A DNA stretch of 64,000 nt, taken from positions 6,972 through 70,971 of the IMG/VR virus record IMGVR_UViG_3300040801_002731; one strand, given 5' to 3'. The stretch comes from a virus. Below are positions 2,871 through 62,669 of the stretch, in pieces (position 1 is the first letter of the stretch; each line of letters begins with the position of its first letter). Made by a program: the position numbers and the translations under genes. The notes below the pieces were generated by a model. That model was not told where the DNA came from. It did no database searches and saw only the letters and a list, made by a program, of their open reading frames with translations.

Positions 2871-2888
2871 TAAATCAATTTTGATTGA
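2871..2888. promoter_or_regulatory. 18-bp palindromic operator copy 1
   Basis: TAAATCA-ATTT-TGATTGA. Confidence 0.7.
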
Positions 2889-3231
2889 TCTGTTGTTTCA
2901 GTTCAAGGCGCAGTTGGTTAAGCAGGTCCAACGTCTCCCGCTCGATCAGGCCAGCCGTCGTATCCCACAGAGCGCCGACCGCGACGAACGCCTCAGCCGG
3001 CTTGACCTCACCCTGTTCCACCTTCCAGGCGAGATCCGCGAGAGTCTCGGAGAGCTTCCGCGTCAGCTCTGCGGTGTGCGAAGGCCAGTTGTCAGGCGCC
3101 CGGCTTCGTGCGTTTTCCGCCTCAAGTGCGCGGATGCGTTTCAGGGCGTCCGCGACAATCTGTTGGCCTGCCGTTCGGCTGTATGGGTCGCCGGCCAACC
3201 GCTCCAGCTTTCTTTCGAGATCGCCGCTCAC
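2875..3231 (-). CDS. Hypothetical protein
   Basis: GTG start overlapping the upstream stop; helical composition. Confidence 0.7.
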   Translation of the reverse strand: MSGDLERKLERLAGDPYSRTAGQQIVADALKRIRALEAENARSRAPDNWPSHTAELTRKLSETLADLAWKVEQGEVKPAEAFVAVGALWDTTAGLIERETLDLLNQLRLELKQQINQN

Positions 3232-5680: not shown

Positions 5681-5752
5681 GACTCTCCTCCGCTTGTGAC
5701 TGCAAAGAAAATGCGTCGTCGCATGTTCTGTATAGCGACGACGCATTGGGCA

Positions 5753-5770
5753 TACATCAGGATTGATTGA
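5753..5770. promoter_or_regulatory. Operator copy 2
   Basis: TACATCA-GGAT-TGATTGA, 16 nt from the GCTATA box at 5731-5736. Confidence 0.7.
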
Positions 5771-5775
5771 TCTTG

Positions 5776-7994: not shown

Positions 7995-8555
7995 TTACTC
8001 CGGTCGTGCGAGAGGGAGATAAGTCGTCGGGCCGGTGCGTCCGCGTTCCCAGACGTGCCAGGCCACTTCCATCGTGGGGCGCCCCTTGCCGAGAAAGTCT
8101 GGGCGCCAAGTGAGCGGGTAGACGGCCTTCGGCTGCCACACGCGCCAGAGTTTCCGGCGCGATGCGGCGTGCCAATAGGTCGACTTCAAGACAAGACAGA
8201 GTTTTTTGCACTCCAACTCGTGCGCCTTCAAAATGAAGGCTTCTGCGAGATTGAAAGGCGGATTGGTGACAATGCTGACGTTCGCAGGAAGACGCCCTTT
8301 AAAAGCCAGAAAGTCTCGTTTCGGGGCCTCAGACATTGCGCCACGCGGGTTGATATCTGAGGCGAGCGTTTTGAAGCCTTTCTCCTGAAACACTCGGATC
8401 ATGGCGCCATCGCCACAGGCCGGGTCGTAGATCGCGCCATCAAAACGCTCGACCGAGAACAAAGCCTGGGTGACGGCTTCTGGCGTCGGATAGAAATCGT
8501 CTTCCTGTCGACCCTCTGCGGGGTTCCCGCCCGCCATTGCAGCGCCCAGGCCCAT
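7995..8555 (-). CDS. Small DNA N6-adenine/N4-cytosine methyltransferase
   Basis: DFYPTP, DPACGDG (SAM-binding) and TNPPF (catalytic). Confidence 0.85.
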   Translation of the reverse strand: MGLGAAMAGGNPAEGRQEDDFYPTPEAVTQALFSVERFDGAIYDPACGDGAMIRVFQEKGFKTLASDINPRGAMSEAPKRDFLAFKGRLPANVSIVTNPPFNLAEAFILKAHELECKKLCLVLKSTYWHAASRRKLWRVWQPKAVYPLTWRPDFLGKGRPTMEVAWHVWERGRTGPTTYLPLARPE

Positions 8556-8579: not shown

Positions 8580-8597
8580 TCACTCAATTTTGACTGA
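8580..8597. promoter_or_regulatory. Operator copy 3
   Basis: TCACTCA-ATTT-TGACTGA upstream of the methyltransferase. Confidence 0.75.
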
Positions 8598-8616: not shown

Positions 8617-11322
8617 TTAGCGTTGAAGCAGCGCCGCCAGATCATCGTAGCCGCCGATCAGCTCCTCGCGACCGTTCCGCAGTGCGTAAATCTTCGGGAA
8701 CGTCCACTCAGACCGATCAAAGCCACGATGCGTCAGGAAGCTCCGCTTCTGATGATCCGACAGCAGCTCGGCCTTGCGGTAAGGCGCGCCGATGTCATTC
8801 AGCAGAGCCGCTGCCTTGTTGCACCAGCCGCAGTTCGGGATGCTGTAGACCACAAACTCGGGCTCGGCCTTCGCGGAGACCACCTCCGGCTCGTCCGACT
8901 TGAAATCGACCGGGCAGGCCCCGCCGGCACAATCCACATGCTCGAAGCCCACGTCTTCCTGAACGGTCGCGTTCTGGATGGCTTCCGCGATCATCTCAAA
9001 CTGGGCCTTGGTGACAGGCTCCTCCGGCTGATACTCGAACGCCGTGGTGTCGATCTGCGGCATCACCGAGCAGCAGCGGACCTTGAACTGACCGTCGATC
9101 ATACCGTTCACGAACATCGGGAACGACGTCACGGCCGGGTCATACTTCGCCGTGTAGGAGACCTGGTTGCCGGTCTCGGGCAGCAGCGAAAGGTCTTCGT
9201 TGACGCCACGGATCCAGAAGGTCTCCAGCAGGCGCAGATAGCGATACTGCTCGTCCATGGTTGCTTCGCCGGCCGTGACCAGCTTGTCGCCCATGCCCAA
9301 GGTGCAGATCACCGGCTGCGTCGGGAAGCCGACGACGGTCGTGCCGGAGTAGGTGGTCAGCTTCTTCGTCGGATAGCCCTCGGCCCGGTAACGCTCCACC
9401 AGGGGATCGTCATTGCGGAACTGGACCCAGCGGAGATACTCACGCATCGCCGGCAGGTGGGCGCCTTCGGTGAGCCCCATCAGCTTGCTGGTGGTGCCAG
9501 CAGGCTTGATCGTCCGATTGGTGTGAGGAGCGGTCAAACCCAGCTTCGCGCTGTAGCGCTCGGCCTCATCGGACACCGCTCGGGCGAAACGTGCCAGCGT
9601 CATCCACATGGGCATAGCGTCCGGGTGCGGGCGCACCATCGTCTGTCCGTTGGCGTCCATCATCGTCGCGCCGGACGGGTCCTCTGCGATGATGTCCCGG
9701 AAGCCCAGGCCGAAGCGCGCGAAGATCCACTCGTGCAGACCGGTGATGCCCACGCCGATGCGGTTGGTCCGCTTCACCTCGCGCTCGTAGAGGCAGCGCA
9801 TGGTGTTGGTGCGGATCAGAGCGCGCGTGGCCGCGCGGAAGGCGTCTTCGGCATCGTTGTCGCTCTGCGCGTGGAACGGCACCACGTCCGCGATCACGCA
9901 GTAGCCGCCAAGAAGTAGCAGACTCACTTCACCGCAGGGGTTGGTTACATGCTTGTAGGTCATCGCCGCAACGCGCTGCGCAAGCGCGCGGGCCAACGGG
10001 CGAGTTGCCTCCTCAAGCCCATCTTCGCCGCCGAACTTCACAAATGAGCCGTCCAGGTAGTCGGCCAAACCATCCGTCTTTTCGGTCAGGCGATCGACCA
10101 TGATCAGGCCAGGCTCGCCGGTGCGGTCGTAATAGCTTGCCCAGGCGACGGCCGCGAACACGCGCCACGCATGAATGTCCAGGTCGGTCAGGCCATCAGC
10201 GGCCAGGCCCGCCACGAACCAATCTTCGATGTCATCGAAGAAGATCGGCGTTGAGCCGTGAAAGCGCACGTCCAGGGCCTGCTCGAACAAGCCGGCCTCA
10301 ACCAGCATGTCCCGGATCCGCGTCACCCCGTTGCGAAACTCGGCGTCCACGGTCACGCTGTTGTTGGCGCTCCACAGGAAGCCGCCGCGCTTGACCGCGA
10401 TGAAGTCGAAGATGGTCTCGTCGCGCCAGGTCTTGGTCGCCATGCGAGCAGCACGACGGGCACCGCCCACAAGGACGCACTCGGCCAGATAGTGGTCGGC
10501 ATACATGGCGGCGCGCCAGGGCTCCATGCCGGCATCGCGCAGTCGCGCCAGGTTTTCGACCGCCTTCATCATCGGACCAGGCCCGCTCGCCGGGCGGTTC
10601 TGCATCCCCTTGATTGGCGCGCCGTAGGGGCGCACGTCGGAGAAGTCGACCAGCAGCACATGATCTCGCTTGCGCTCGAACGCCATGCGCTCCAGCACCT
10701 CAATGGCCCGAGCCCATCCTTCTCGGCTGTCACCAACGAGGTGATGCACGATTTCCGAGCCGGCATACAGGTGCTCGGCGTCACGGCGGGTCAGGTAGCC
10801 GGAGATGCGCCCGGCCTGAACGTCGGCATGTCCATGCTCGATGATCGGCACCACGATGGGCATGTTGTTCAGATCAGCGATCTCCACCAGGGCGTCGTCA
10901 TAGGCAGTTCCGACGCCGCTCCCGTTCAGCAACAGGCGGTAGGTGAGGCAGCGCATGGCGGAGGTGGAACAGTTGGTGAACACCTCCTGCGGACGACCAG
11001 GCTGCGTTTCGTCCCCGTGTTGCAGGTGCCGGCCGCTCATCAGCAGCGATGCCTGACGCAGATGGTGACGCATGGACAGGCGCTCGGCGTCCTCGGTCGA
11101 GCGCACGGACGGATCGGTGTGATCGCGCAGCAGCGCGGCGTTGCCCAGGGCAACACGTTCGGCAACTTCGGCCCAGGTTTCGTGGCGTTCCCGACCGGTC
11201 CAGTCCTTGATCTTGCGGTTGACGGTGCGATCAGCGACGGCCTGGCCCATGCCGGGGAAATAGGAGCGGGCAGGGGTGTCCGTCACCGATGGGGCGGTGC
11301 TGGGAGGCATCGGATGCTCCAT
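8617..11322 (-). CDS. nrdJ: Class II (AdoCbl-dependent) ribonucleotide reductase with C-terminal glutaredoxin domain
   Basis: NCSTS, VLVGGARRAA, TNPCGE, IKPAGTTS, CAGGACP tail, then YSIPNCGWC...TFPKIY...IGGYDDL. Confidence 0.88.
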   Translation of the reverse strand: MEHPMPPSTAPSVTDTPARSYFPGMGQAVADRTVNRKIKDWTGRERHETWAEVAERVALGNAALLRDHTDPSVRSTEDAERLSMRHHLRQASLLMSGRHLQHGDETQPGRPQEVFTNCSTSAMRCLTYRLLLNGSGVGTAYDDALVEIADLNNMPIVVPIIEHGHADVQAGRISGYLTRRDAEHLYAGSEIVHHLVGDSREGWARAIEVLERMAFERKRDHVLLVDFSDVRPYGAPIKGMQNRPASGPGPMMKAVENLARLRDAGMEPWRAAMYADHYLAECVLVGGARRAARMATKTWRDETIFDFIAVKRGGFLWSANNSVTVDAEFRNGVTRIRDMLVEAGLFEQALDVRFHGSTPIFFDDIEDWFVAGLAADGLTDLDIHAWRVFAAVAWASYYDRTGEPGLIMVDRLTEKTDGLADYLDGSFVKFGGEDGLEEATRPLARALAQRVAAMTYKHVTNPCGEVSLLLLGGYCVIADVVPFHAQSDNDAEDAFRAATRALIRTNTMRCLYEREVKRTNRIGVGITGLHEWIFARFGLGFRDIIAEDPSGATMMDANGQTMVRPHPDAMPMWMTLARFARAVSDEAERYSAKLGLTAPHTNRTIKPAGTTSKLMGLTEGAHLPAMREYLRWVQFRNDDPLVERYRAEGYPTKKLTTYSGTTVVGFPTQPVICTLGMGDKLVTAGEATMDEQYRYLRLLETFWIRGVNEDLSLLPETGNQVSYTAKYDPAVTSFPMFVNGMIDGQFKVRCCSVMPQIDTTAFEYQPEEPVTKAQFEMIAEAIQNATVQEDVGFEHVDCAGGACPVDFKSDEPEVVSAKAEPEFVVYSIPNCGWCNKAAALLNDIGAPYRKAELLSDHQKRSFLTHRGFDRSEWTFPKIYALRNGREELIGGYDDLAALLQR

Positions 11323-11353
11323 GTTTGGAAAGGACGAAGACGACCAGGATAGA

Positions 11354-11371
11354 TCAATCAATTTTGACTTA
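11354..11371. promoter_or_regulatory. Operator copy 4
   Basis: TCAATCA-ATTT-TGACTTA upstream of the RNR gene. Confidence 0.75.
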
Positions 11372-11460
11372 CCAGTCTTGACAGACCACAGCGGCCGTCT
11401 TCGTTGTTTGCTCTATGCTCGATATAGCGCGTTGCGATTGGGCGTGAAGAACATTTTGCG

Positions 11461-12547: not shown

Positions 12548-12565
12548 ACAATCAATCTTGATTGA
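12548..12565. promoter_or_regulatory. Operator copy 5
   Basis: ACAATCA-ATCT-TGATTGA, just downstream of GCTATA at 12569-12574. Confidence 0.75.
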
Positions 12566-12775
12566 TTATATAGCACATGCGTTATGGACGCGCAGTGCTC
12601 TGTTGATCTGAGCCTGGATGTTCAACAACGCCCGCTGGTCGGACGGCGTGGAGGGCACAAATATGGTCTGGCCGTCCGGCGAGGTCCATTTGGTGTGCTT
12701 GCGCCCTTTCGTGATGACCCAGCCGGATCGTCGGTATTCTCGTGCCATCTTGGCAAGATCCTTGCGAACACTCAT
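12566..12775 (-). CDS. HicA-like (dsRBD-fold) small protein
   Basis: GWVITKGRKHTKWTSPDGQTIFVPSTPSD; ATGA-coupled to the SbcC-like gene. Confidence 0.6.
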   Translation of the reverse strand: MSVRKDLAKMAREYRRSGWVITKGRKHTKWTSPDGQTIFVPSTPSDQRALLNIQAQINRALRVHNACAI

Positions 12776-16649: not shown

Positions 16650-16667
16650 CCAGTCAACTTTGATTGA
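16650..16667. promoter_or_regulatory. Operator copy 6
   Basis: CCAGTCA-ACTT-TGATTGA adjacent to the RBS. Confidence 0.75.
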
Positions 16668-18059: not shown

Positions 18060-18077
18060 TCAATCAACTCTGACTGA
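18060..18077. promoter_or_regulatory. Operator copy 7
   Basis: TCAATCA-ACTC-TGACTGA, 9 nt downstream of GCTATA at 18087-18092. Confidence 0.8.
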
Positions 18078-18132
18078 CACGATTTTTATAGCGATGTCAG
18101 CACGGCAGAGCGATTGGCATTTCGATGGGGAA

Positions 18133-40939: not shown

Positions 40940-40964
40940 TCTTTTCACGGAAATGAGAGCCCGC

Positions 40965-46528: not shown

Positions 46529-46546
46529 TCAATCAATCTTGATCTA
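46529..46546. promoter_or_regulatory. Operator copy 16
   Basis: TCAATCA-ATCT-TGATCTA. Confidence 0.65.
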
Positions 46547-47682: not shown

Positions 47683-47791
47683 TTCCAAGTCCGCGCTCTG
47701 TTATATATAATATATAATAAATAATACTCTTAGAGATTCTTCTCTTAAAACCTATAGAGAATAACTCTAAGAGCGAGACGGCGCCGGCTCG

Positions 47792-49620: not shown

Positions 49621-49638
49621 TCAATCAAAGTTGATTGA
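49621..49638. promoter_or_regulatory. Operator copy 17 (perfect consensus) upstream of the lysis cassette
   Basis: TCAATCA-AAGT-TGATTGA; TCTATA box at 49640-49645. Confidence 0.82.
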
Positions 49639-53726: not shown

Positions 53727-56087
53727 TCATCCGAAGATCAAGCTGTAAATGAGAGACTTACTTTCCACCGTCTTCAACTTCTCCTCGATTGGAACGCCGA
53801 TGGTTTTCCACCCATCAACATCCGAATAGAGAAGCATCATTCCAGGTTCGACTGCGAAATCCGGTAGCGTTCCCGCCACCACGACCTGATAAAAGTCGCC
53901 GTTTCCAGGCGCGGCCGGATACTGTCCGGTGCTGGCATCCCAGGTGCCTCGCCAGGTCAACGCTCCGCCTACCGTAGCCGCAGCGTGCATGGCCCAATGG
54001 TAGGCGGAGCGGGTTCCGGCACCGTTGGCGTCTTCGTTGGCCGGAGCCTCGGCCCAGCGCTGCGCCTTCAGCTCGCTGCTGGCGGCGTTCGACGCCGACG
54101 TCACAGCTTCGTTTCGAGCGGTCTGGGCGTCATTTTTGGCCGTGGTCGCGGTGCTGGCCGCATTGACAGCGGTATCCTTGGCCGAAACCGCGGCGTTCTT
54201 GGCCGAAGTCGTGTTGGTCTCACTGGTCAGAGCAGAAGCGGCGGAAGCGGCAGCGTTGGTCTCGCTTGTTGCGGCATTGGCAGCAGAGGCGGCAGCGTCG
54301 ACCTTGCTCTGGGCAGCGTTGGTGGCCGCCGTCTGCGCCGCGGTCTTGCTGGACAGAGCTGAGGCGGCCGAGGCAGCAGCGTTCGTTTCGGACAGAGCGG
54401 CGGCGTCTGCACTGGCCTGGGCCGAGGTCTTGCTGGTCAGCGCAGACGCCGCAGACGCGCCGGCGTTGGTCTCGCTGGTCGCCGCATTCGCTTCGCTCGT
54501 GGCAGCGTTGGTCTCGCTGGTCGCCGCGTTGGCAGCGGAAGCCTGAGCATTGGTCTCCGACAGAGCAGCGGTCGCGGCGCTGGACGTCGCGTTGGTCTCC
54601 GACAGAGCAGCGGCCGCGGCAGCGCTGGTCGCTTCGGCGGCCTTATTGACAGCCGTCGTTTCGCTGCTCGCTGCACTGGTCGCGGATGCAGCGGCAGCGG
54701 ATGCAGCGGCAGCGGCGTTGGTCTCGCTGGTCGCCGCGTTGGTCTCGCTGGTCGCTGCGTTGGTCTCGCTGGTCGCTGCGTTGGTCTCGCTGGTCGCTGC
54801 GGCCTGTTCGGACGCCAGGGCGGCGGCAGCCGACGCAGACGCCGCCAATTCGGACGCGGCGGCATTCGTCTCGGACGCGCTGGCATTCAGAGCACTCTGC
54901 GCCGCGGCCAATTCCGAAGCCGCAGCATTGGTCTCGCTCTGGGCAGCCGCGACCTGTGCAGCCTGGGCCGCGCTCGCAGCGGTCGACGCGGCAAGTTCAC
55001 TGTTCGTGATGGACTGTTCGGCAGTCTGCGCGATCGTGGCGCTGTTCGCGGCAGCCGTGGCGCTGGTTTCGGCGCTCGTTTGCGCCGCAACAGCTTGATC
55101 CTTGGCCGTCTGCGCATCACTCAGGCTGGTTGCGGCGTCTGTCGCGGCCTGGCTGGCGGTCGTAGCGCTCGTTGCGGCCTCTGTAGCCGACTGAGACGCG
55201 GACTGCGCAAAAACAGAAGCGTTGGCCTCGCTCTGGGCAGCCGCCGCCTCGGATGTCTGAGCCGCGCCTGCCGCCGCGACAGCATTAGCTTCGCTCTCGA
55301 CAATAGACAGCTCGGCCGCCTCTGCGATGGTCGCACTGCTGGCCGCGGCCTGGGCGCTGGCGTCGGCGGCCTGGGCGCTGGCCGCAGCGTCCGTCTTTGC
55401 GGTTTCGGCCTGGGCGCGGGAAATGTCGGCGTTGGAGGCGGCAAACTGAGCCTGATCACGATACGTCAGAGTCGACGCCGCATGGTCGGTCGCGGTCTGG
55501 GCGCTGCTTTCCGCGTTCGATGCCGAAAGGGCAGCGGCGTCTTTGTGAGACAGAGCTTCGCTGGCCGATGCAGCCGCGGCCGTGGCCGACGATTCAGCAT
55601 CCAGAGCATAGGACTGTAGGCCGTTGACGATCTCGATGGCCGTGCCAACCGTCGGATCACCGAGCACGCCGCTGATCCAGGCCGGGCACTTCACCATCTG
55701 GACGTTGCCCTCCAGATCGGTCAGCGGATATGTGCCGTCACCGTTGGGGCCGCCCGTCACCGTGCCGGACAGCCACGCGATCATTTCGTCTTCGCGCACC
55801 TTCCAGCGGGCGACGAGATCGGACATCCGACGCGCCAGATCGGCGTTCGTGGTGAAGGTAAAGTTTCGGATGATCGCGTAGGAAAGACCAGTTGCGGTAT
55901 CTCCAGCCCACACCGGCCAGATTTTCAACCCGGTGTCCGCAACGACCTGCTCGACCATATAGAAGCGGTCGTTATCGACCGTGAGAATATCACCCGCCTT
56001 GATGTTGGTGGACCAAACCGTGTCCACGCCAACAACGCTGGCCGAGCCCGCGGTGACATTGATGGTTCCGGTGCGATACCAGGTCAT
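53727..56087 (-). CDS. Tail fibre protein 1 (N-terminal anchor, long SETNAA-rich shaft)
   Basis: MTWYRTGTINVTAGS..V.G..T.W N-terminal anchor; Ala-rich repeats. Confidence 0.85.
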   Translation of the reverse strand: MTWYRTGTINVTAGSASVVGVDTVWSTNIKAGDILTVDNDRFYMVEQVVADTGLKIWPVWAGDTATGLSYAIIRNFTFTTNADLARRMSDLVARWKVREDEMIAWLSGTVTGGPNGDGTYPLTDLEGNVQMVKCPAWISGVLGDPTVGTAIEIVNGLQSYALDAESSATAAAASASEALSHKDAAALSASNAESSAQTATDHAASTLTYRDQAQFAASNADISRAQAETAKTDAAASAQAADASAQAAASSATIAEAAELSIVESEANAVAAAGAAQTSEAAAAQSEANASVFAQSASQSATEAATSATTASQAATDAATSLSDAQTAKDQAVAAQTSAETSATAAANSATIAQTAEQSITNSELAASTAASAAQAAQVAAAQSETNAAASELAAAQSALNASASETNAAASELAASASAAAALASEQAAATSETNAATSETNAATSETNAATSETNAAAAASAAAASATSAASSETTAVNKAAEATSAAAAAALSETNATSSAATAALSETNAQASAANAATSETNAATSEANAATSETNAGASAASALTSKTSAQASADAAALSETNAAASAASALSSKTAAQTAATNAAQSKVDAAASAANAATSETNAAASAASALTSETNTTSAKNAAVSAKDTAVNAASTATTAKNDAQTARNEAVTSASNAASSELKAQRWAEAPANEDANGAGTRSAYHWAMHAAATVGGALTWRGTWDASTGQYPAAPGNGDFYQVVVAGTLPDFAVEPGMMLLYSDVDGWKTIGVPIEEKLKTVESKSLIYSLIFG
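54715..54798. repeat. 4 x 21-nt tandem repeat (ATSETNA)
   Basis: GCGTTGGTCTCGCTGGTCGC(C/T) four times. Confidence 0.9.
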
Positions 56088-56136
56088 GCGAAATCCTCAG
56101 AAAATGCTCCGTCCATGATACAAGGAGACCAAAAGA

Positions 56137-56154
56137 TCAGTCAATCTTGATTGA
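56137..56154. promoter_or_regulatory. Operator copy 18 upstream of the tail fibre genes
   Basis: TCAGTCA-ATCT-TGATTGA. Confidence 0.8.
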
Positions 56155-56553: not shown

Positions 56554-56948
56554 GCGGCGACAACCTCGACTTCCAGAGGCAACCAGGGGAACTGCTCAGG
56601 CACCTCGATCTGATAGGTGGCCGGCATAGGCGACGTGATCTCAAGCACGCCGCCGGCGATCTCGTAGGTCTCGCCGTCGATAATCACCGTGCCCGGATCG
56701 GGCAACCCGCTGATCGTCGCCGTGTCGGCGTCGTCAGCGGCGATCTGGGACTTGTCGAGCACAGGGGTTGGCCGCGGCATGACCTTTCCGTTCAGGACAT
56801 AATCCTTGTGGAAATCGCTCTGTTCAGTCAAAAACAAAGCGCCTTTATCCATCGCTTCCTGTTCTGCCATGTGAAGAACCGAATCGTCACAGTTACCGCA
56901 GAACAAAATGCGTCCATTCTCGTCGTGCGCTGTATAGTGAACGATCAT
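56550..56948 (-). CDS. Tail-associated hypothetical protein
   Basis: ATGA-coupled to the J-like gene. Confidence 0.7.
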   Translation of the reverse strand: MIVHYTAHDENGRILFCGNCDDSVLHMAEQEAMDKGALFLTEQSDFHKDYVLNGKVMPRPTPVLDKSQIAADDADTATISGLPDPGTVIIDGETYEIAGGVLEITSPMPATYQIEVPEQFPWLPLEVEVVAA

Positions 56949-59900
56949 TTGTTCAGCCCCATAATCACAACAACTACGCCACGGGCGCTGCCTCCAGAGA
57001 CAGTAACCTGCGCATTGTGACCGCCAGGATTAACCCACATGGCGCCCATTACCGACATGCTTACGCCGCCGCCGCCGACCCATTGCGATATTTGCGCCGA
57101 TCTGTGCCCGTCGATATTCAAAGTAATCGAGACGCTTCCTCCCGGATTGTCGCCAGCCGAAGACACCTCGGTTTGCCCGAACGCCCACGCGGTCACCGTG
57201 CCAGAGTTCACCATGTTGATATAAGCCGTGGCCGTGTAGGACCCCGACGCGCCGGCCACCTGCGAAATCGCGCCGTTCTTGATCTTGATGGTGTCCACCG
57301 ACAGATCGCGGATATAGGCCGCATCCATCGTCACCCTACCGCCGTAGACGCCGAACGGCACGATGCCGGGATATCCAGGCTGCACAACAGCAAAGGCGTC
57401 GGCTCGAACAATGAACTCGCTGTAGGGCGTGCCGTTGCGCGGATAGCTCGCCAAACCAAAGCCGGTGACATAGCCGTTGTTGTCGATCTTGACGGTGTAT
57501 TGGCCGCTCAAGCCGTTCACGGCGTTGACGGTCTGGTTTACCGTCGTCACCATGTTGTTGTGCGCGGTCTGGAGCGTGGTGATGTTGTTGGCGAGCGAGC
57601 CGTCCGCACTAGCCCGAGCATTCTGCTCGTTCGTGATGGCGGCGGAGTTGTTGTTGATGGCCGCAGCGAGGTTGTTCAGATCCTGAACGACGGCTTGATC
57701 GAACGTCGACCGGGCGGTCTGCTCGTTCGTGATAGCGGTCTCGGCGTTCCCAAGCCGCGTTCCCAGACTGTCGATGCTGCTCGCAAGCGACTGGTCATTA
57801 TTGACCAAAATCTGCTGGTTGTTCTGGAGAACGGCATAGTTGTCATTGAACGTGGCGTTCAGGCTGTTGATGCTCTGGGCCAAAGCCTGATCGGCGTCGG
57901 CCAAAGCCTGCGTATTGCTCTGAATAAGAGCATACTTGTCGTTGAAGTCCGCGCTCAGAGTGTTGATGCTCTGGGCCAAAGACTGGTCGTTGTCCACCAG
58001 CGTCTGCTGGTTGCTTTCCAGAATGGCGATATTACCATTCAGCTCGGAACTCAAAGTGTCGATGCTGGTTGCAAGCGCCTGGTCGTTGCTCGCAAGCGCC
58101 TGGTCGTTGCTCTCCAGAATGGCGATGCTGTCGTCCATCTGGGAGCTGAGAGTCGTGATGTTTTGCGCAAGCGCCTGGTCGTTTTCGACCAGCGTCTGCT
58201 GGTTGGTCTGAAGGACGGCGATATTGCCATTCAGCTCGGAACTGAGCGTGTTAATAGACTCTGCCAAGCTCTGATCAGCCGACGCCATCACGCGGTTGGT
58301 TTCGTTGATCGCTGCGGCAATATCCTCGTCCACCCGCACCGACAGCTCGGTGATCTGCTGCGCCAGCGCGGCATCTTCGGTCGCCTGGGCGTTCAGGTTC
58401 TGATTGACCAAGGCGATCTTGTCATCGAACTCGGCCGCGACCGTCGTCACCTGCTCGGCGAGATTGGCATCTTCCGTCTGAAGCTCTTGAACCTTGGTGT
58501 CGACCACGGCCGCCCGGCGATCCGTGATGCCACGGTTGGCCTTGATCTCCTCGAAATGCTCATAGCCGAGCGTCAGGGCGTTCAGCAGATCCTCAGACAA
58601 ACCCTCGACGTCCGGGATTCCCAGATTGTCGATGATGGCCTGGACGCGCCCGGCCAACTCCTCATGGATCGTCGTCACGTCATCATGGACAAGCGTCATC
58701 TCGTCCTGAATGACGCGGATGTCGTTCAGGATGGCGTCGACGTCGATCCGCTCAAGCTGCTCGGCCAGTTCGGGAATCAGATGGGAACTGTCGATGATCG
58801 CGTCCGCGATGTCACCGCCATCCAGCGGCTCGGTGCGGACATAGGTGCCCATGTCCGAGTTCCACTCGGAGACCAGACCGGCCTTGTTGGCAGACCGGAT
58901 CCAGAACCAGTAATCCCAGATGCCTCGCAGGCCGTTGACGGTGTGCGTGGTGCCGTAGGCGTGCGCAACCAGAGACGCTTCCTCGCGGTTCGGCGTCTCG
59001 GAACACCAGACCTCAATATGGTCGATAGACGGATCGGCCGGCAGCTCCCAGTTCAGGATTGCCAGACGGATGCCGCCGGTGGCCGTCAGATTGAACGGTG
59101 CCTCGGGCGGCACGCCTGCGCCGACCACCGTGTAATCGAACACCGGCGCCGTCTCGAACGGCGGCTTGTTGCCGTCTTTGTCGATGGCGACCAGGCGCAC
59201 CTGGAGCATGTCGCCGACACCAGCGTCGAAGCTGAAGGTGGTGCCGCCGCTCATGACGGTGGTGTAGAGGGTCAACGGGTCGCCATTGACGCCGATGTAG
59301 ACGTCGGCTCCGGCATAGACCCCATAGGCGGGCCGGCGCCAGGAGAACCAGCAGCGCATCACCATGCCGTCGGGCGTGAGCTTTTCCTCGCGCACCGCAT
59401 CCACAACGACATGACCGATAGTGACCGGCAAATCGCTGTAGCCTTCCGGCAGACCAGCGTTCTCGGGGTCGAGGTAGGCTTCCTCGACATATTCCGTGGC
59501 CTTGATGGTGCGGGTCTCGACGCCGTTGCCGACCATCGACTGCACGCGGAAGGGCTTGGCGACCTTTTTGACCTCGCCGAACATCCAGTGGGCGAAGTCG
59601 GCCGGCACCTGTGACAGAGCGACGGAAATCTCCGTCACCTCGCCGCTGCCGCTGACAGACTTCTCCTCGATGGCGTCGGTGTCCCACAGCTCGACCGTCT
59701 GACCGACACTCAGACCCGTGGGCGCTTCGGACAGGATCAGCTCGCTCCAGGTGCCGGCCACGATGCGCGCAACGCCCAGGTCGCGGTCGCCGACCTTGAT
59801 CCGCCGAACGCGACCGGACGGTGTGCCGCTGATCAGAATGGACTTCTCGGTGACCATTGTGATCGCGGCAGTGCCCCGGCGCAGGGCCGGGTGCATGACC

Positions 59901-62284
59901 AGGAACTTGTAGGTCTTGCCGCTCTGCATCGACACCGGCCGGTCCAGCTTGACGCGCGTGGCCGTAGAGCCGGGCTCCAGGCGCCCAGAATAGCCCCACT
60001 GCGGCATGTCGTGCTGAACGAGAACGGTATCGCCCACGGTGCAGGCGATGGCCTCCAGCGGCGCATCGAACGTGACCGTCTGCTGAATCAGACGGTTGAG
60101 CGCCATATGGAAATAGCCCTCGAAACGAGCCTGCTCGTAGTGCGTGATGCCCGGCAGCGTGATGCTGGCAACCTTCTGCGGCAGACCGCGCGCGAGAGCC
60201 GTTTCGTCCACGACCCGGACGATCTTGCGCCGGAAGCCATCGTCCCGGTCGTAGTAGTTGATCTCGACCTCGTTGGCCCGGTCTTCCATCGACAGCCACT
60301 CGATGGCGAAGCTGTCCTTGATGATGTTGCCGGGGCCGAACATCATCGCCGGCGTCTCGGGCTTTTCGATCGCCAGGCTGTAGCGCGTGCCCACGCGCAC
60401 GATCTGAGCATGACCGACGCGGAACACCATCTGGGCGGCATCCCAGACATTGGTCTTGAAATCGAAGATGCCGTTGAACTCGTAGCCGCGCAGCGCACAC
60501 CACTCAGCCCACTCGAACCACTTGGGCATGTCGAAGCGCTCAAGTGGCAGGCCGGCGCCGTAGCGGTCGTTCGTCAGAATGTCGAGTGCGATCCAGGCCG
60601 GGTTGCTGGTCCAGGCCGTGGTCGTGTGATTGCCCAAATGGTCGTAGTGCGGCACCTTCTTGCCGCGCACCAGGGCGGTGATCTGCGGCACCGAATTGAG
60701 CTGTTCGGACAGCTTGATCTTCAGGCCATACCATGCCGTATAGTTGTAGGCGACCTGCTCAGCAATCACCTCGCCGACGTCGGTCCAGGCCACCATGTCG
60801 AGCGTGCGGCCATCTTCGGACGGCGGCGCGTTACGCTTGACGCGGATCTCGTAGAAGCCCTCATCGAGCGCCGGCGTCCAGTAGCTGCGGCGCAATGCCT
60901 TGCGCTGAGCGCCGACAATCTCGGGGCCTGCCTGGACGAGCGTCCAGGAGTTCGTCATGTTGCCGCCGGTGACCCGGATCTGATAGGCGGCAGGCGCCAG
61001 ACCGCCGATCTCAAAAGTCTTCCGCTCGGCCGTGCTGCCACCGTAATACCAGCGGCTCTCGACCCCTGCGTCAGTGCCGAAGGTATGCCAGACCCCATCC
61101 GGGCCGGCATACTCGACGCGAACATCCCATGCGCGAACCGGGCGTGTATCTGTGTGATCACCACGTTCGTAATGGTAGAAATCGCCGGTGTTGAACAGCA
61201 CAGGCTCAACCTCGACCCGCAACCCGGTGGACCCTTCCGGCATCGAGGCGCTGCCCGACTGGATCCAGCTCGGCGTGGTCTGCATCGGCTGCCAGAAGGT
61301 CTCGCCGACCTGCCGATACTCGACATCCAAACGCACGCCGCGCGGAGAGATCGAGCCGTCGTCCTCGATGTAGCCCAGGCCCTGCGGAAACACGACATCG
61401 ACCCGCAGACCATCGACCTCGCCTTCGGTGGTGTGCGTTGCCCAGACGTCATGCGCCAGCGTGACGCCCTTGTTGATCTGCCGGATGGTCGAGGCAAACC
61501 ATTCGCTCATCGTCTCGCGCGCTTGACCCATGCGGGAGCGCGTCTCGACCTCGATGAAGTTGCTGGCCGGCTGCTTGTTGATCTCGACGTTGGTGATGCT
61601 CTCGATGGGGCCTTCCGACACCACCGCCATCATCTTCAGGTATTGGGTGTCGTCGACGTTCTCGGTCTGGATGGCGGTCAGGTTGCCGCCTGTGCGGAAC
61701 TCGCCATAGACCACCGGCACGACGACATCTTCCGTCGCCGTGTTCTTGGCGCCGTCGATGCCGTAGCTCGGGCTCTCGGCGCTCAGGTCGGTCTGCTCGG
61801 GCGTCTTGGGCTTGGGTGGCGGCAGCAGGGCGTTGACCAACAGGCCGCCAACGGTCGTAACAAGCCCCGTGACGACGCTCGTGGCAACGCCGGCCATTGT
61901 GCCAGTCAGACCCATCGCGCCCACCAGCGGCCCTGCAACGGCCGCGGCAGCCACGGACACCGCGATCATCGCCACCATGCGCATGATCGACTTGCCATCT
62001 CCTCCCCCGCCTTCAGGGATGGCAACGACAACGATGGTGTCGTTCGGCTTCAGGGTCGTGGTCGGCCAGTCGTCCCGCTCAATGGCCGTCTCGTTGACAG
62101 CCACGCCCCACTCGACGTGTTCCGGCAGACCCTCCAGATAGTCAGCCAGCGTCTTGCCGTCGGCCCAGACGATCCGACCGGTCGAACGCTGGTCGAGGCG
62201 CAGCGTGTTGTAGATGACGTGGCAGACGACGGACGGCGTTTCGACGTCCTCAGTGGGCGGCAGCAGCGTGTCCTGCGAAGTCAT
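56945..62284 (-). CDS. Tail tip/host-specificity protein (lambda I-J-like fusion with DUF1983-like C-terminus)
   Basis: N-terminal ubiquitin-like I module, VPVVYGE, SEGPI, NPAW, FN3-like domains, ~29-aa coiled-coil repeats, YTVKID.NGYV.GFGL. Confidence 0.9.
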   Translation of the reverse strand: MTSQDTLLPPTEDVETPSVVCHVIYNTLRLDQRSTGRIVWADGKTLADYLEGLPEHVEWGVAVNETAIERDDWPTTTLKPNDTIVVVAIPEGGGGDGKSIMRMVAMIAVSVAAAAVAGPLVGAMGLTGTMAGVATSVVTGLVTTVGGLLVNALLPPPKPKTPEQTDLSAESPSYGIDGAKNTATEDVVVPVVYGEFRTGGNLTAIQTENVDDTQYLKMMAVVSEGPIESITNVEINKQPASNFIEVETRSRMGQARETMSEWFASTIRQINKGVTLAHDVWATHTTEGEVDGLRVDVVFPQGLGYIEDDGSISPRGVRLDVEYRQVGETFWQPMQTTPSWIQSGSASMPEGSTGLRVEVEPVLFNTGDFYHYERGDHTDTRPVRAWDVRVEYAGPDGVWHTFGTDAGVESRWYYGGSTAERKTFEIGGLAPAAYQIRVTGGNMTNSWTLVQAGPEIVGAQRKALRRSYWTPALDEGFYEIRVKRNAPPSEDGRTLDMVAWTDVGEVIAEQVAYNYTAWYGLKIKLSEQLNSVPQITALVRGKKVPHYDHLGNHTTTAWTSNPAWIALDILTNDRYGAGLPLERFDMPKWFEWAEWCALRGYEFNGIFDFKTNVWDAAQMVFRVGHAQIVRVGTRYSLAIEKPETPAMMFGPGNIIKDSFAIEWLSMEDRANEVEINYYDRDDGFRRKIVRVVDETALARGLPQKVASITLPGITHYEQARFEGYFHMALNRLIQQTVTFDAPLEAIACTVGDTVLVQHDMPQWGYSGRLEPGSTATRVKLDRPVSMQSGKTYKFLVMHPALRRGTAAITMVTEKSILISGTPSGRVRRIKVGDRDLGVARIVAGTWSELILSEAPTGLSVGQTVELWDTDAIEEKSVSGSGEVTEISVALSQVPADFAHWMFGEVKKVAKPFRVQSMVGNGVETRTIKATEYVEEAYLDPENAGLPEGYSDLPVTIGHVVVDAVREEKLTPDGMVMRCWFSWRRPAYGVYAGADVYIGVNGDPLTLYTTVMSGGTTFSFDAGVGDMLQVRLVAIDKDGNKPPFETAPVFDYTVVGAGVPPEAPFNLTATGGIRLAILNWELPADPSIDHIEVWCSETPNREEASLVAHAYGTTHTVNGLRGIWDYWFWIRSANKAGLVSEWNSDMGTYVRTEPLDGGDIADAIIDSSHLIPELAEQLERIDVDAILNDIRVIQDEMTLVHDDVTTIHEELAGRVQAIIDNLGIPDVEGLSEDLLNALTLGYEHFEEIKANRGITDRRAAVVDTKVQELQTEDANLAEQVTTVAAEFDDKIALVNQNLNAQATEDAALAQQITELSVRVDEDIAAAINETNRVMASADQSLAESINTLSSELNGNIAVLQTNQQTLVENDQALAQNITTLSSQMDDSIAILESNDQALASNDQALATSIDTLSSELNGNIAILESNQQTLVDNDQSLAQSINTLSADFNDKYALIQSNTQALADADQALAQSINSLNATFNDNYAVLQNNQQILVNNDQSLASSIDSLGTRLGNAETAITNEQTARSTFDQAVVQDLNNLAAAINNNSAAITNEQNARASADGSLANNITTLQTAHNNMVTTVNQTVNAVNGLSGQYTVKIDNNGYVTGFGLASYPRNGTPYSEFIVRADAFAVVQPGYPGIVPFGVYGGRVTMDAAYIRDLSVDTIKIKNGAISQVAGASGSYTATAYINMVNSGTVTAWAFGQTEVSSAGDNPGGSVSITLNIDGHRSAQISQWVGGGGVSMSVMGAMWVNPGGHNAQVTVSGGSARGVVVVIMGLNK

Positions 62285-62669
62285 AGAAACCAATGACCCT
62301 CTTGTCCCAGAAGCTCAGACGTTCGATGCAGACGCCGCCGGTGCCTTCCCAGGTGTGAACGAAGCGGTCATGTCGGAGCGTCATGCCGACATGCGCCCCG
62401 TAGCCCCTGATGCGGAACAGAACGGTGACGCCAGGGCGTTGTTCGACCGACACCCAGTCCTTCAGCCCAACGTCGACCAGACGCGCGATCTCGGCGATCT
62501 TGGTCGGACTGCGGACGTCCGGGATGATCACGCCTCGACGCCGATAAAGCTCCATGAGGAGACCGTAACAGTCGAAGGTGTCCGGCCCGCGTCCGCCGTA
62601 GGCGAAGGGCCTGCCGATCAGATCCAGTATAACGGACTCGGAAAAATCAGTCAGCTTTGATTTATCCAT
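62250..62669 (-). CDS. NlpC/P60 tail tip protein (lambda K-like)
   Basis: IGRPFAYGGRGPDTFDCYGL...HVG...FVH. Confidence 0.88.
   Translation of the reverse strand: MDKSKLTDFSESVILDLIGRPFAYGGRGPDTFDCYGLLMELYRRRGVIIPDVRSPTKIAEIARLVDVGLKDWVSVEQRPGVTVLFRIRGYGAHVGMTLRHDRFVHTWEGTGGVCIERLSFWDKRVIGFYDFAGHAAAAH
62647..62664. promoter_or_regulatory. Operator copy 19 (inside the 5' end of the K-like gene)
   Basis: TCAGTCA-GCTT-TGATTTA. Confidence 0.55.

Follow-up and report, generated by a model that had tools for sequence, protein, structure and literature searches.

Dispersed palindromes at gene junctions

The analyzed window comprises 64,000 nucleotides (bases 6972-70971 of a single 106,503-bp contig) and carries a recurring palindrome upstream of genes whose products were assigned by PHROGs and Pfam as DNA polymerase exonuclease subunit, ribonucleotide reductase, methyltransferase, SbcC/SbcD-like, PhoH and CobS/CobT-like proteins, tail fibres, and a J-like tail protein. 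These products agree with a first-pass annotation of the DNA, which had placed the copies ahead of nucleotide-metabolism, recombination, replication, and tail genes. The pattern TCARTCANNNNTGAYTGA gave four exact matches in the window and 20 matches with ≤ 2 mismatches, compared to 0.48 expected from shuffles (shuffle maximum 3). Across the 106,503-bp contig 34 sites with ≤ 2 mismatches were found, and the density in this phage-plasmid is roughly one copy per 2.7 kb. The scan recovered all 19 starts listed in the first-pass annotation and an additional one at 23227 that had been missed. The element described there as an 18-bp palindrome is real and a dyad, but according to the conservation profile the full unit is 20 bp long, a-TCAATCAA-nn-TTGATTGA-t, with an 8-2-8 layout. 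The conserved span reaches from position 0 (A) to position 19 (T) and includes positions 8 (A) and 11-12 (TT). Both half-sites are conserved, and the copies at 33882 and 49621 are indeed perfect 7-N4-7 palindromes.

With crude, GC3-based gene calls (88% coding), all sites of the genome except one were located between genes or over a stop or start codon, which bears out the earlier statement that nearly all copies lie at gene junctions. The exception, at 23227-23244 (two mismatches), lies within the last ~20 codons of ORF 23175-24362 and 62 nt upstream of ORF 22976-23164. Two geometries around a (G/T)CTATA box had been proposed, and both were found again, in minus-strand orientation. A (G/T)CTATA(A/T) box comes first and the motif 0-8 nt later at 12548-12565 (2 nt after GCTATAT, over the -10/+1 region), 18060-18077 (an exact copy, 8 nt after GCTATAA), 20845-20862 (5 nt after TCTATAA, with the next ATG 12 nt on), and 49621-49638 (directly after TCTATAA); the copy at 33882-33899, 5 nt after a terminator plus GTTATAT and 11 nt before the CobT-like ATG, and a degenerate copy at 34845 are placed similarly. 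The opposite order, motif, 16 nt, and then GCTATA, is present in three near-identical ~50-bp units at 5753-5770 (GCTATAC), 25871-25888 (GCTATAT; the motif abuts the PolIII-alpha stop codon), and 40922-40939 (GCTATAT), the last heading a gene run that contains the ligase.

The remaining copies are arranged more variously. Upstream of the DNA polymerase exonuclease-subunit gene (2052-2714), a copy at 2871-2888 (one mismatch) overlaps the end of ORF 2875-3231 at its stop; the one at 8580-8597 is part of a longer inverted repeat upstream of the methyltransferase-like gene (7995-8555), and the one at 11354-11371, which precedes the ribonucleotide reductase gene (8617-11361), has a GCTATAT box ~50 nt upstream of it. 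At 16650-16667 a terminator-like hairpin immediately precedes the motif, and the ATG of the SbcD-like gene follows 7 nt on; the copy at 29762-29779 supplies, with its TAA, the stop of the sigma-like gene and, with its ATG, the start of ORF 29227-29769. The copy at 31665-31682, upstream of the CobS/MoxR-like gene (30421-31593), is flanked by a GC-rich inverted repeat; that at 44670-44687 is located 35 nt upstream of ORF 44362-44634, and that at 46529-46546, upstream of the PhoH-like gene, lies 13 nt after a CTTGAC box and is followed by a terminator-like hairpin. Before the tail genes, an exact copy at 56137-56154 abuts the upstream stop codon and has a TTGACT half 18 nt before TATCATGG, in the -35 place, upstream of the tail-fibre gene (53727-56087); at 62647-62664, upstream of the J-like tail gene (56945-62293), a CTGACT half stands 17 nt before TATACTGG. 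No copies were found in the 6.1-kb RepA/recombinase/ligase stretch from 34845 to 40922. Throughout the family described below, the sites are preceded at 11-18 nt by a T-run that itself follows C-rich sequence, and a separate, strand-specific promoter-like element, CC-N12-GCTATAW, is present as well.

Conserved layout, changing half-sites across the family

Among alphaproteobacterial phage-plasmids, this genome is a member of the RHEph10/pLM21S1/B1VFA family. Its PolIII-alpha is ~52% identical to those of RHEph10, B1VFA, and RHph phages, with which it also shares gene order. A plasmid lifestyle has been described for pLM21S1 (PMC4447125) and for a relative of B1VFA (PMC12509600), and the family member pAMS5a is a plasmid. 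The relatives keep the 8-2-8 layout at equivalent gene junctions with different half-sites (TAAGTAAG, TCAGTCAG, TAAGTCAC), e.g., TAAGTAAG-nn-CTTACTTA in B1VFA and TCAGTCAG-nn-CTGACTGA in pAMS5a. RHEph10 has 34 copies and Y2_11 37, compared to 4-6 for a reversed control. Upstream sites are present at the CobT and CobS junctions of this genome, RHEph10, and B1VFA, and the ligase-RepC stretch of the latter two is likewise free of copies. At least 1.5 template sites per 10 kb were found in 64 of 66 loci with family marker genes (median 3.9), in contrast to a median of 0 in loci lacking these genes. The dyad element is phage-specific and conserved across the whole family, while its half-sites turn over.

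RHEph10 infects Rhizobium etli and B1VFA R. leguminosarum/johnstonii (PMC12509600). Since these hosts belong to one genus and the half-sites of the two phages differ, the comparison points to a phage-encoded reader of the sites.

XRE1 as candidate binder

The gene at 34269-34709 encodes XRE1, a protein of 146 amino acids that the first-pass annotation had named as the regulator. Orthologues were present in all relatives checked. The Pfam HTH_3 score of XRE1 itself is below the cut-off and that of the B1VFA orthologue passes; the best sequence match in the PDB was 8bny_A, "Immunity repressor protein" (E 2.3e-5). In the AF2 model (pLDDT 87), the N-terminal domain superimposed on the DNA-binding domain of 434 repressor with an rmsd of 2.1 Å and on 434 Cro with 2.7 Å at 30-35% identity, with Foldseek E-values of only about 0.03-0.08. 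The model and the matches support XRE1 being a Cro/CI-type HTH protein whose fold resembles 434 repressor and Cro. XRE1 is also predicted to form a homodimer via its C-terminus: the prediction score was 0.48, compared to 0.00 for the best control, and, among proteins with solved structures, 20 of the 30 that are pairs of one chain and 1 of the 23 that are single chains attained that mark. At least 94% of the contacts agreed between the runs, with a partner pLDDT of at least 80, and the predicted interface (residues ~101-142) leaves the HTH domains free.

As noted earlier, a copy lies upstream of this gene, at 34787-34804 (one mismatch, TCGATCAA half), 78 nt from the XRE1 start codon; the degenerate copy at 34845-34862 (three mismatches, TAGATCAGCGTTGATTTA) follows a GCTATAT, the putative XRE1 promoter, by 6 nt. 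Of 49 loci, 27 had copies within ~350 bp on the upstream side of the XRE1 gene (14% expected) and 32 within 450 bp on the downstream side (16% expected), a flanking that is non-specific, as most operons are flanked.

At the start of the recognition helix, the XRE1 residue two positions ahead of an invariant Asn corresponds in the alignment to Gln28 of 434 Cro. This residue is K or R in 22 of 29 loci where base pair 6 is C:G, and N, Q, or S in 24 of 25 loci where base pair 6 is often A:T, a direction that agrees with the usual preferences of Lys/Arg for guanine and Asn/Gln for adenine. However, the tree accounts for the association with ~5 changes, so that independent pairs are too scarce for a sign test, and when the columns were compared one by one as a control, some outside the HTH (residues 88, 78, and 27) were tied to base pair 6 no less strongly than residue 46. 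The pattern could thus come from shared ancestry alone, which confounds the apparent covariation. The earlier proposal of XRE1 as regulator gains from the HTH fold, the predicted homodimer, and the upstream copies; the covariation is inseparable from ancestry, and a ParB_N or ribbon-helix-helix (RHH) protein is a possible reader too. XRE1 is the most likely candidate for binding the palindromes. XRE2, encoded by the second XRE gene (37600-37962), had no homologue among 120 related loci and was ruled out as a conserved binder.

Several other readers of the sites were weighed. That XRE1 is merely one more controlled gene and that another phage-encoded protein, either one of two ParB_N-domain proteins (KorB-like) or an RHH protein, recognizes the palindromes appears unlikely. 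The motif was absent from 43 loci encoding XRE1 homologues, some with near-identical recognition helices, and mostly even beside the gene, so that it tracks the phage family rather than the protein family, which speaks for such a reader. The two ParB_N-domain proteins are 46-68% identical in 5/5 relatives; strong sites (genome positions 89959 and 90640) flank the gene of the 222-aa one, whose conserved C-terminal stretch differs at a few positions between phages with different half-sites. By eye, this stretch reads as one strand and then two helices. However, it was only with their N-terminal ParB/Srx domain that the ParB_N proteins matched solved ParB and Noc structures, no HTH domain was detected in them, their PHROG families are annotated "ParB-like partition protein", and their genes lie beside packaging genes. 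The RHH protein is linked to ParA and conserved in 4/5 relatives, and the tandem 4-nt sub-repeats of the sites (TCAA TCAA) are reminiscent of RHH operators; yet it was not found in B1VFA at E ≤ 0.001, and by analogy to type Ib partition a ParA-paired RHH protein is expected on clustered centromere repeats. In XRE1, the alternation between K/R and N/Q falls on a residue position known to contact bases, with no counterpart shown for the ParB_N and RHH proteins. Very improbably, the repeats act through nucleic-acid structure, i.e., as 5′ stem-loops for mRNA stability or processing, weak terminators, or cruciforms. Sites after a -10-like box would be transcribed at the extreme 5′ end of leaders, and the sites, with the T-run and C-rich sequence upstream of them, mark the starts of transcription units. 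The pairing counts at positions 4 and 15, taken from the site list, were A-T 14, A-C 12, G-T 7, and G-C 1; no covariation of these positions was found across the listed sites, compensatory change is absent, and sense-strand A-C mismatches outnumber G-U pairs. Predicted RNA hairpins are weak and no better on the sense strand (average -2.75 kcal/mol) than on the antisense strand (-3.45), conservation within each genome covers the sequence and not just the pairing, no U-tract follows the sites, and a search of Rfam gave no match. Since the halves vary independently and the hairpins are weak, a dimeric DNA-binding protein is indicated rather than a hairpin, in line with the dimeric regulator originally proposed. 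A host-encoded regulator, with the phage borrowing a host regulon signal, is hardly credible: phages of closely related Rhizobium hosts differ in their half-sites, the motif is confined to family loci, and to our knowledge it does not resemble the alphaproteobacterial CtrA, LexA, FixK/FNR, RirA, or DnaA boxes.

Mode of action and related systems

In every recognizable case, the site overlaps or abuts a promoter-like element (-35, -10, or +1 region), and this overlap with core promoter elements favours repression. About 16 of the 34 sites have no recognizable promoter nearby, and in RHEph10 the two sides of a site often differ (TCAGTAAA versus TCAATCAA), an asymmetry not usual for a simple homodimer; both observations count against a dimeric repressor. 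Activation may occur at some promoters, and the same protein-site pair might, with rather low probability, time lytic growth as a dual or predominantly activating regulator. A dimer at the -35 place would then recruit RNA polymerase or the phage sigma-like factor to motif-N16-GCTATA promoters in the early half and to motif-N15/16-TATNNTGG promoters before the tail genes, sites over -10/+1 would shut genes off, and regulator and sigma factor would order early and late expression. In the three near-identical units the dyad centre lies ~26 nt before CTATA(T/C), with a poor hexamer, GATGTA, at the spacing expected of a -35 box; in the late region, the sites at 56137, 62647, and genome position 76332 precede TATCATGG or TATACTGG by 15-16 nt. 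XRE1 is moreover co-directional with the lytic genes and heads the CobT-CobS-sigma-PolIII run, and RHEph10 and B1VFA were isolated as free phages on host cultures, B1VFA being plaque-purified (PMC12509600). Sites upstream of a -10 box are centred near -37 to -38.5, a place also fit for activation but, as deduced from the spacing, not the canonical -41.5. The right half-site of the late examples reads TTGACT or TTGATT, 17-18 nt from the -10-like box; it is itself -35-like, so that a bound dimer would mask a usable -35, and sites starting 0-8 nt after a -10 box could hardly activate. The further claim that dispersed sites replace a cascade is doubtful, given the sigma-like protein encoded in the family and the separate CC-N12-GCTATAW element; a cascade may coexist with dispersed operators.

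Phage P1, which also lives as a plasmid, has a C1 repressor that is countered by an anti-repressor and, like XRE1, lacks an SOS-cleavable domain. XRE1 is not known to be homologous to C1, and no Coi-, Lxc-, or Ant-like partners were identified in this phage-plasmid. C1 controls many operons through ~22 operators scattered over the ~90-100 kb genome (PMC8546580); these are 17 bp long and asymmetric (ATTGCTCTAATAAATTT), unlike the dyad-symmetric 8-2-8 sites described here. Cluster A mycobacteriophages (L5, TipsytheTRex) carry > 20 operators/stoperators in promoters and short intergenic spaces, sometimes overlapping stop or start codons, and among relatives the sites diverge in sequence together with the specificity of the repressor (PMC9283540, PMC6550527). 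Copy number, placement, codon overlaps, and site divergence resemble the present case, but the stoperator is an asymmetric, orientation-dependent 13-mer bound by a monomer with two DNA-binding domains, whereas our sites are palindromic and the candidate XRE1, predicted to be a homodimer, has one HTH in each chain. In Cluster O mycobacteriophages, > 30 copies of the 17-bp dyad TGTTCGG-N3-CCGAACA (7-N3-7) occur throughout the genome, many of them intergenic, and a dimeric binder was predicted (PMC4351075). One third of those copies lie inside genes and most away from promoters, in phages that have no proposed binder and no obvious temperate lifestyle; in the present genome, junctions hold nearly all copies, many of them over promoter-like boxes, and there is a candidate binder. 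The HTH domain of XRE1 is of the 434 repressor/Cro type, and lambdoid (lambda, 434, P22) Cro and CI operators are likewise dyads (14-18 bp) with half-sites one helical turn apart, the repressor autoregulating through weaker sites. The lambdoid operators, however, cluster at two or three promoters instead of ~34 places, and the C-terminal domain of XRE1 is short and helical, not an S24 peptidase. Palindromic sites dispersed over a plasmid are also used by KorB/KorA of the IncP plasmid RK2 to silence many promoters, KorB being a full ParB with an HTH domain, in contrast to the ParB_N proteins here, which show only the N-terminal domain. The repressor of Streptomyces phage phiC31 binds a conserved 17-bp inverted repeat at many genome places, but phiC31 is an integrating phage of an unrelated host phylum.

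Taken together, we infer with a probability of about 0.55 that a single dimeric DNA-binding protein encoded by the phage, likeliest XRE1, uses the palindromes as operators and silences many operons. XRE1 would combine a helix-turn-helix domain of the Cro/CI type with a helical dimerisation domain at its C-terminus, and would place one recognition helix on each 8-bp half-site, the half-site centres being 10 bp apart. Bound dimers would cover the -35, -10, or +1 region of many promoters or sit directly between genes, and XRE1 would limit its own synthesis via the two weaker sites. This dispersed repressor layout, known from phages P1 and L5 and not previously described for the RHEph10/pLM21S1/B1VFA family, would link the sites to lysogeny: the replication, nucleotide-metabolism, and tail operons would be silenced during plasmid-prophage life, and the plasmid module (RepA, recombinase), which is free of copies, would stay on.

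The dispersed dyad and its placement

A pattern search of the window with TCARTCANNNNTGAYTGA gave four exact matches and, with up to two mismatches allowed, 20 matches, compared to 0.48 expected and a maximum of three in dinucleotide-preserving shuffles. These 20 included all 19 start positions that a first-pass annotation, made from the sequence alone, had listed for an 18-bp palindrome TCA(A/G)TCA-N4-TGA(T/C)TGA; the site starting at 23227 is one copy beyond that list. Extension of the search to the full genome and its relatives, as the annotation had proposed, yielded 34 copies with at most two mismatches in the 106,503-bp record (61% G+C), with a median spacing of 2.7 kb, and the dyad was recovered family-wide. 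Genes were called with a crude procedure based on GC3, according to which 88% of the genome is coding and the minus strand holds almost all genes up to about 90.6 kb. With this gene call, site 23227 was the sole copy among the 34 that was neither intergenic nor overlapped a stop or start codon, and the location at gene junctions described previously was found for all other copies. Site 29762, for example, provides both the TAA stop codon of the gene for a sigma-like protein and the ATG of the gene that follows. A search for tRNA genes in the window gave none.

To define the conserved unit, the 34 copies were aligned in gene orientation. The resulting unit, a-TCAATCAA-nn-TTGATTGA-t, is an 8-2-8 dyad in which the half-site is a doubled tetranucleotide. 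The palindromic repeat noticed in the first pass was thus recovered, the conserved unit being longer than the 18 bp originally assigned. Conservation extends over both halves: across the 34 copies, the left half has 12 mismatches and the right half 21. Many copies of one short site, far above chance and mostly at promoters or gene junctions, were found here, as in dispersed-operator silencing systems of the P1 C1 or L5 stoperator type. In summary, the observation of a dispersed palindrome is confirmed, and its range covers the whole genome as well as a large phage family.

Several properties of the repeat distinguish a protein-binding site from a nucleic acid structure. The pairs found at positions 4 and 15 were A-T (14), A-C (12), G-T (7), G-C (1) and others (2); since position 4 (A or G) did not covary with position 15 (T or C), the two halves vary independently. 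On the sense strand there were more A-C mismatches than G-U pairs at these positions. The predicted RNA hairpins were weak, with a mean of -2.75 kcal/mol for the sense strand, and those of the antisense strand were no weaker (-3.45 kcal/mol). A search of Rfam gave no family matched by the palindrome, and the readings as an RNA hairpin or a known Rfam element were rejected on these two grounds. A structured RNA or terminator was likewise discarded, as compensatory changes, a stable fold of the transcribed strand and a U-tract were not found. Within each genome, conservation covers the sequence itself, beyond mere pairing. This pattern of conserved, independently varying halves with weak hairpins matches the expectation for a dimeric DNA-binding protein reading two half-sites that are separated by one helical turn, in agreement with the dimeric regulator suggested earlier. 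SbcCD targets, methylase or restriction sites and parS centromeres were set aside by reasoning from the length, number and intergenic placement of the sites.

Promoter-like elements and site geometry

The sequence GCTATAW occurred 11 times and CC-N12-CTATAW eight times in the window, always on the gene strand, compared to 1.47 and 0.40 expected occurrences, respectively. The common upstream sequence of these boxes approximates CCCAAnCGC-N5-GCTATAT, with examples on the minus strand at 11422-11441, 12568-12587, 18086-18105, 25198-25217, 25848-25867, 40899-40918, and 45542-45561. According to a genome-wide listing, all boxes with this CCCAAnCGC-type signature are located on the gene strand in the half carrying replication and nucleotide-metabolism genes, the last one at window position 49645. 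The -10 consensus of alphaproteobacterial sigma-70 is CTATAT, and the boxes may belong either to the host sigma-70 or to the phage sigma-like protein encoded at 29777-30421, which showed a Sigma70_r2 match. We regard the TATNNTGG boxes and CC-N12-GCTATAW as putative promoters.

The position of the dyad relative to such elements varies. Sites 12548, 18060, 20845, 33882, 49621, 34845 and the one at genome position 5801 start 0-8 nt after a box, and sites 5753, 25871, and 40922 end 16 nt before GCTATA, with a similar arrangement at 31665. Site 46529 and the site at genome position 92452 are located 13 nt after a CTTGAC box. In the tail-gene region, the half reading TTGACT or TTGATT precedes TATCATGG or TATACTGG by 17-18 nt (sites 56137, 62647, and genome 76332). 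For about 16 copies, located simply between genes, no promoter was recognisable in the vicinity; some of these copies directly follow terminator-like hairpins. Across 247 sites of the family, a T-run preceded by C-rich sequence was present 11-18 nt upstream, so that the sites tend to flag where transcription units begin. A directly upstream -10-like box was rejected as a family-wide rule, as it was found for only 34 of 262 unique sites when both orientations were considered; this arrangement is therefore one geometry among several. The variable position of the sites, always overlapping or abutting core promoter elements, argues for repressor operators rather than for a fixed part of the promoter.

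The sites at 5753, 25871, and 40922 are part of three near-identical stretches of about 50 bp (5720-5775, 25840-25892, and 40890-40943) ahead of three unrelated small genes, with the sequence aaga-TCAATCAAT..TGA(T/C)GTA-tgcccaa.cg..cg.cg-CTATA(T/C). Apparently, a promoter-operator cassette has been copied. Before the tail genes, a TAT(C/A)(A/C)TGG box follows the palindrome at a distance of 15-16 nt, in the forms TATCATGG, TATACTGG, and TATCATGG (window 56105-56136 and 62615-62646, and genome 76300-76331 outside the window). These boxes point to a second, late class of promoters in which an operator half-site occupies the -35 position. Very AT-rich islands were also noted in this 61% G+C genome at window positions 47700-47760 and, outside the window, at genome positions 85,680-85,760, with stretches like ATATAATATATAATAAATAATA and TTTATTTTTTATTTTTATTATTTATTTTTTAATAT; they may represent an origin or a region of strong promoter activity.

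Related phage-plasmids and the candidate reader XRE1

As nucleotide searches gave only short matches, to Rhizobium RHph phages and to plasmid pAMS5a, the genome was placed by protein-level searches. The nearest DNA match was pAMS5a, a 117.7-kb plasmid of Methylobacterium sp. AMS5. The 1148-aa protein encoded at 25889-29335 (minus strand) is a DnaE-type polymerase with about 52% identity to its homologues in the Rhizobium phages RHEph10, B1VFA, V1VFA-S and the RHph series. It carries a C-terminal domain of the uracil-DNA-glycosylase (UDG) superfamily (PF03167, residues 998-1123) and hence represents a polymerase-UDG fusion. The gene order that the present genome shares with these phages is ligase, replication protein, small HTH gene, CobT, CobS, sigma-like protein and polymerase. 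Two adjacent ORFs on the minus strand, 42992-43600 and 43640-44365 (202 and 241 aa), are found where relatives carry one gene for a DnaB-type helicase. Members of the family occur in Rhizobium, Sinorhizobium, Methylobacterium, Roseospira and many metagenomes.

The half-sites differ between relatives. The exact pattern of the first-pass annotation is absent from B1VFA, in which de novo palindrome counting revealed at least 14 copies of TAAGTAAG-nn-CTTACTTA in 42 kb. In pAMS5a the site is TCAGTCAG-nn-CTGACTGA, often arranged as cgCTATAA-N4-motif. The pattern TCA(A/G)T(C/A)A-N4-T(G/T)A(C/T)TGA had 34 copies in RHEph10 and 37 in RHph_Y2_11, compared to 4-6 for the reversed control. The same junctions, ahead of the CobT-like and CobS-like genes, bear sites in the genome studied here, in RHEph10 and in B1VFA. 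Many sites of RHEph10 and Y2_11 are asymmetric along the direction of transcription, TCAGTAAA-TA-TTGATTGA (e.g., positions 27454, 63891, 65276, and 78349 of the RHEph10 record), one half resembling the half-site of B1VFA and the other that of the present genome.

An alignment of homologues of XRE1, the small HTH protein encoded at 34269-34709 on the minus strand, was used to collect loci, 50 of them from genomes and 66 from viral contigs. Since GC-rich palindromes swamped the output of a general de novo dyad finder in many loci, this approach was dropped, and the loci were scanned with the template TNANTNAN-nn-NTNANTNA instead. Most viral contigs of about 100-120 kb contained 4-8 template matches per 10 kb, their dominant half-sites including TAAGTCAC, TAAGTCAG, TAAGTAAG, TCAGTCAG, and TAAATCAA. 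When the loci were split by the family marker genes for CobT, CobS, sigma, polymerase, and ligase, 64 of 66 marker-positive loci had at least 1.5 sites per 10 kb (median 3.9), whereas the median of the 43 marker-negative loci was 0. The dispersed dyad is therefore a trait of the phage family. RHEph10 and B1VFA have hosts of the same genus and different half-sites, which makes a reader encoded by the phage more likely than a host factor.

XRE1 (146 aa) shares 36-38% identity with syntenic genes of pAMS5a, RHEph10 (gp041), Y2_11 and B1VFA (B1VFA_128), the orthologues being annotated as XRE family in pAMS5a and as DNA binding in Y2_11. Its match to Pfam HTH_3 (18.7 bits, E 0.0018) is below the cut-off of 23, the B1VFA orthologue passes it with 30.1 bits, and XRE1 matches a PHROG family 'transcriptional regulator' at 3e-7. 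With a profile of 38 homologues, the PDB matches were 'Immunity repressor protein' (8bny_A, E 2.3e-5) and 434 Cro. The AF2 model of XRE1 (pLDDT 87) consists of an N-terminal five-helix HTH domain and three further helices. The HTH domain was superimposed on the DNA-binding domain of 434 repressor with an rmsd of 2.1 Å over 63 residues (32-35% identity) and on 434 Cro with an rmsd of 2.7 Å over 67 columns (30% identity), so that the predicted fold resembles that of 434 repressor and Cro; the Foldseek probability was approximately 1.0, with E-values of only 0.03-0.08. Prediction with two copies of XRE1 gave a score of 0.48, the best control scoring 0.00; 20 of 30 proteins with structures solved as pairs of one chain attained this mark, compared to one of 23 solved as single chains. 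At least 94% of the contacts agreed between runs, the pLDDT of the partner was at least 80, and the predicted interface was symmetric, involving residues 101-142 approximately and leaving the HTH domains free. This prediction supports XRE1 as a putative homodimer.

Two weaker copies of the site are located upstream of XRE1, one at 34845 (three mismatches, 6 nt after GCTATAT) and one at 34787, 58 bp further. Among 49 non-redundant loci, a template site was present within approximately 350 bp upstream of the XRE1 gene in 27 (14% expected) and within 450 bp downstream in 32 (16% expected). Because most operons are flanked by sites, this flanking shows membership of XRE1 in the regulon only. Directly downstream of XRE1, in the position of gp042 of RHEph10, lies a 68-codon ORF with a good Shine-Dalgarno sequence (33971-34176, minus strand), for which no homologue was detected in 120 related loci.

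With respect to specificity, residue 46 of XRE1 precedes the invariant Asn in the recognition helix by two positions, and its counterpart in the alignment with 434 Cro is Gln28, an established base-contacting position. Residue 46 is Lys or Arg in 22 of 29 loci with C:G at base pair 6 of the half-site, and Asn, Gln or Ser in 24 of 25 loci in which this pair is often A:T. The direction of this pattern fits the usual preferences of Lys and Arg for guanine and of Asn and Gln for adenine. The raw 2 × 2 table was strong, but on the XRE1 tree it comes down to about five changes, and a sign test would need more independent pairs. In a column-by-column control, several alignment columns outside the HTH were associated with base pair 6 as strongly as residue 46, so that shared ancestry may explain the pattern. 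We therefore consider the covariation suggestive. No clear association was seen between position +3 of the recognition helix (S/T) and base pair 2. Homologues of XRE1 outside the phage family occur in loci without the motif, mostly even beside the gene, and some of these have near-identical recognition helices.

Given these limits, we put the probability that XRE1 is the binder and mainly a repressor at about 55%. The earlier interpretation is partly supported: it agrees with a dimer-type dyad, which is moreover family-wide, and its proposed reader XRE1 is still a candidate, in view of shared ancestry and of the homologues in motif-less loci. The second XRE gene, XRE2 (37600-37962), had no homologue in any of the 120 related loci and was rejected as binder, since it cannot be the conserved reader. 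That another phage protein reads the palindromes seems improbable to us. By analogy to KorB on plasmid RK2, such a reader could be one of two ParB_N-domain proteins, which have conserved counterparts in each of the five relatives tested (46-68% identity), or the ParA-linked ribbon-helix-helix (RHH) protein, conserved in four of the five. The ParB_N proteins are encoded in tandem (251 and 222 aa) at genome positions 89120-90627, outside the window, and the 222-aa protein has a conserved C-terminal stretch, KTH..RFKV...DAE...LTNAGDALV, by eye a strand and two helices, which is a possible DNA-binding module. However, only the N-terminal domains match solved ParB/Noc structures, no HTH domain was found, and both proteins fall in PHROG families annotated as 'ParB-like partition protein'; compared to ParB-parS and KorB-OB, the two conserved proteins thus have the N-terminal domain alone as detectable counterpart. 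A dual or activating role of the same XRE1-site pair appears equally doubtful.

Tentatively, the findings can be combined in a speculative 'operator grammar' of the family, which we consider unlikely to hold as a whole. The 8-2-8 dyad with a doubled tetranucleotide half-site (TNAN TNAN) would be used about 35 times per genome in alphaproteobacterial phage-plasmids of about 100-120 kb, and its letters would be re-coded between lineages together with a single residue of a small Cro/CI-type protein, at the beginning of its recognition helix. This bi-functional XRE1-like protein would silence the prophage and also replace the -35 box to switch on a subset of promoters, including those of the tail genes, alongside a phage sigma factor reading the separate CC-N12-GCTATAW promoter. 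In that case, immunity groups would be set by the half-site classes and could be predicted from the sequence alone.

Plasmid state and comparison with known systems

Relatives of this phage reside as plasmids. pLM21S1 and RHEph10 have been described as plasmid-like prophages or phage-plasmids (PMC4447125), RHEph10 also being listed among elements of uncertain phage-plasmid status (PMC7969092), and B1VFA and V1VFA-S encode parA, parB, repC and one predicted transcription regulator (PMC12509600); resident plasmids are reported for family members in two of these studies (PMC4447125, PMC12509600). The present genome encodes a RepA_C replication protein, a tyrosine recombinase and XRE2, all in a stretch of lower G+C content, a ParA-RHH pair and, outside the window, the two ParB_N proteins. 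As residents of this kind, such elements must keep their lytic genes off across more than 100 kb. The longest site-free stretch of the early half, from 34845 to 40922, comprises the RepA, recombinase and ligase run, and the stretch from ligase to RepC is site-free in RHEph10 and B1VFA too. XRE1 has no S24 peptidase domain, which would fit the finding that mitomycin C did not induce pLM21S1 (PMC4447125). Plasmid residence, the site-free plasmid module and the absence of an S24 domain are consistent with repression tied to the plasmid state.

At window positions 34925-37597, the RepA_C protein and the tyrosine recombinase share 77-80% identity with their counterparts on a contig of Roseospira marina DSM 15113, whereas XRE1, sigma and a neighbouring ORF share only about 48-51% with this relative. 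Fast divergence of XRE1 (51% versus 77-80%) was dropped as an explanation because sigma and the neighbouring ORF also show about 48%; the unusual feature is therefore the similarity of the plasmid module. Judged from these identities, this maintenance module looks recently exchanged between otherwise distant relatives.

Phage-plasmids are common, but knowledge of their control circuits comes mainly from P1 and N15. P1 has a C1 repressor with 22 dispersed asymmetric 17-bp operators (PMC8546580), and L5-type mycobacteriophages have a monomeric repressor and more than 20 asymmetric 13-mers, the stoperators, in promoters and short intergenic gaps (PMC9283540). The mode of action proposed here is alike, but the present site is a true dyad with a Cro/CI-type candidate dimer. 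Stoperators are asymmetric and their orientation follows transcription; the dyad, with 12 versus 21 mismatches in its halves, differs in this respect, some asymmetry being seen in RHEph10. Cluster O mycobacteriophages carry over 30 copies of a 17-bp dyad whose function is not known (PMC4351075), which the present dyad resembles; here, unlike there, the placement at junctions is near-exclusive, promoter-like boxes are overlapped and a candidate binder is at hand. No description of these repeats in RHEph10-type phages was found in a literature search. Since genome-wide silencing by dispersed operators is already known in principle, our results represent an extension and not a new principle.

The regulon is well defined and family-wide and gives testable predictions of specificity. 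For a large family that has hardly been studied, our analysis supplies a regulon defined by sequence, a candidate master regulator and a promoter-like element. Should the binder be confirmed, the sites would serve annotation as markers of operon boundaries, the switch between K/R and N/Q would be a testable case of operator-repressor co-change, and the half-site classes TCAATCAA, TAAGTAAG, TCAGTCAG, TAAGTCAC and others would predict mutual immunity among these phage-plasmids.
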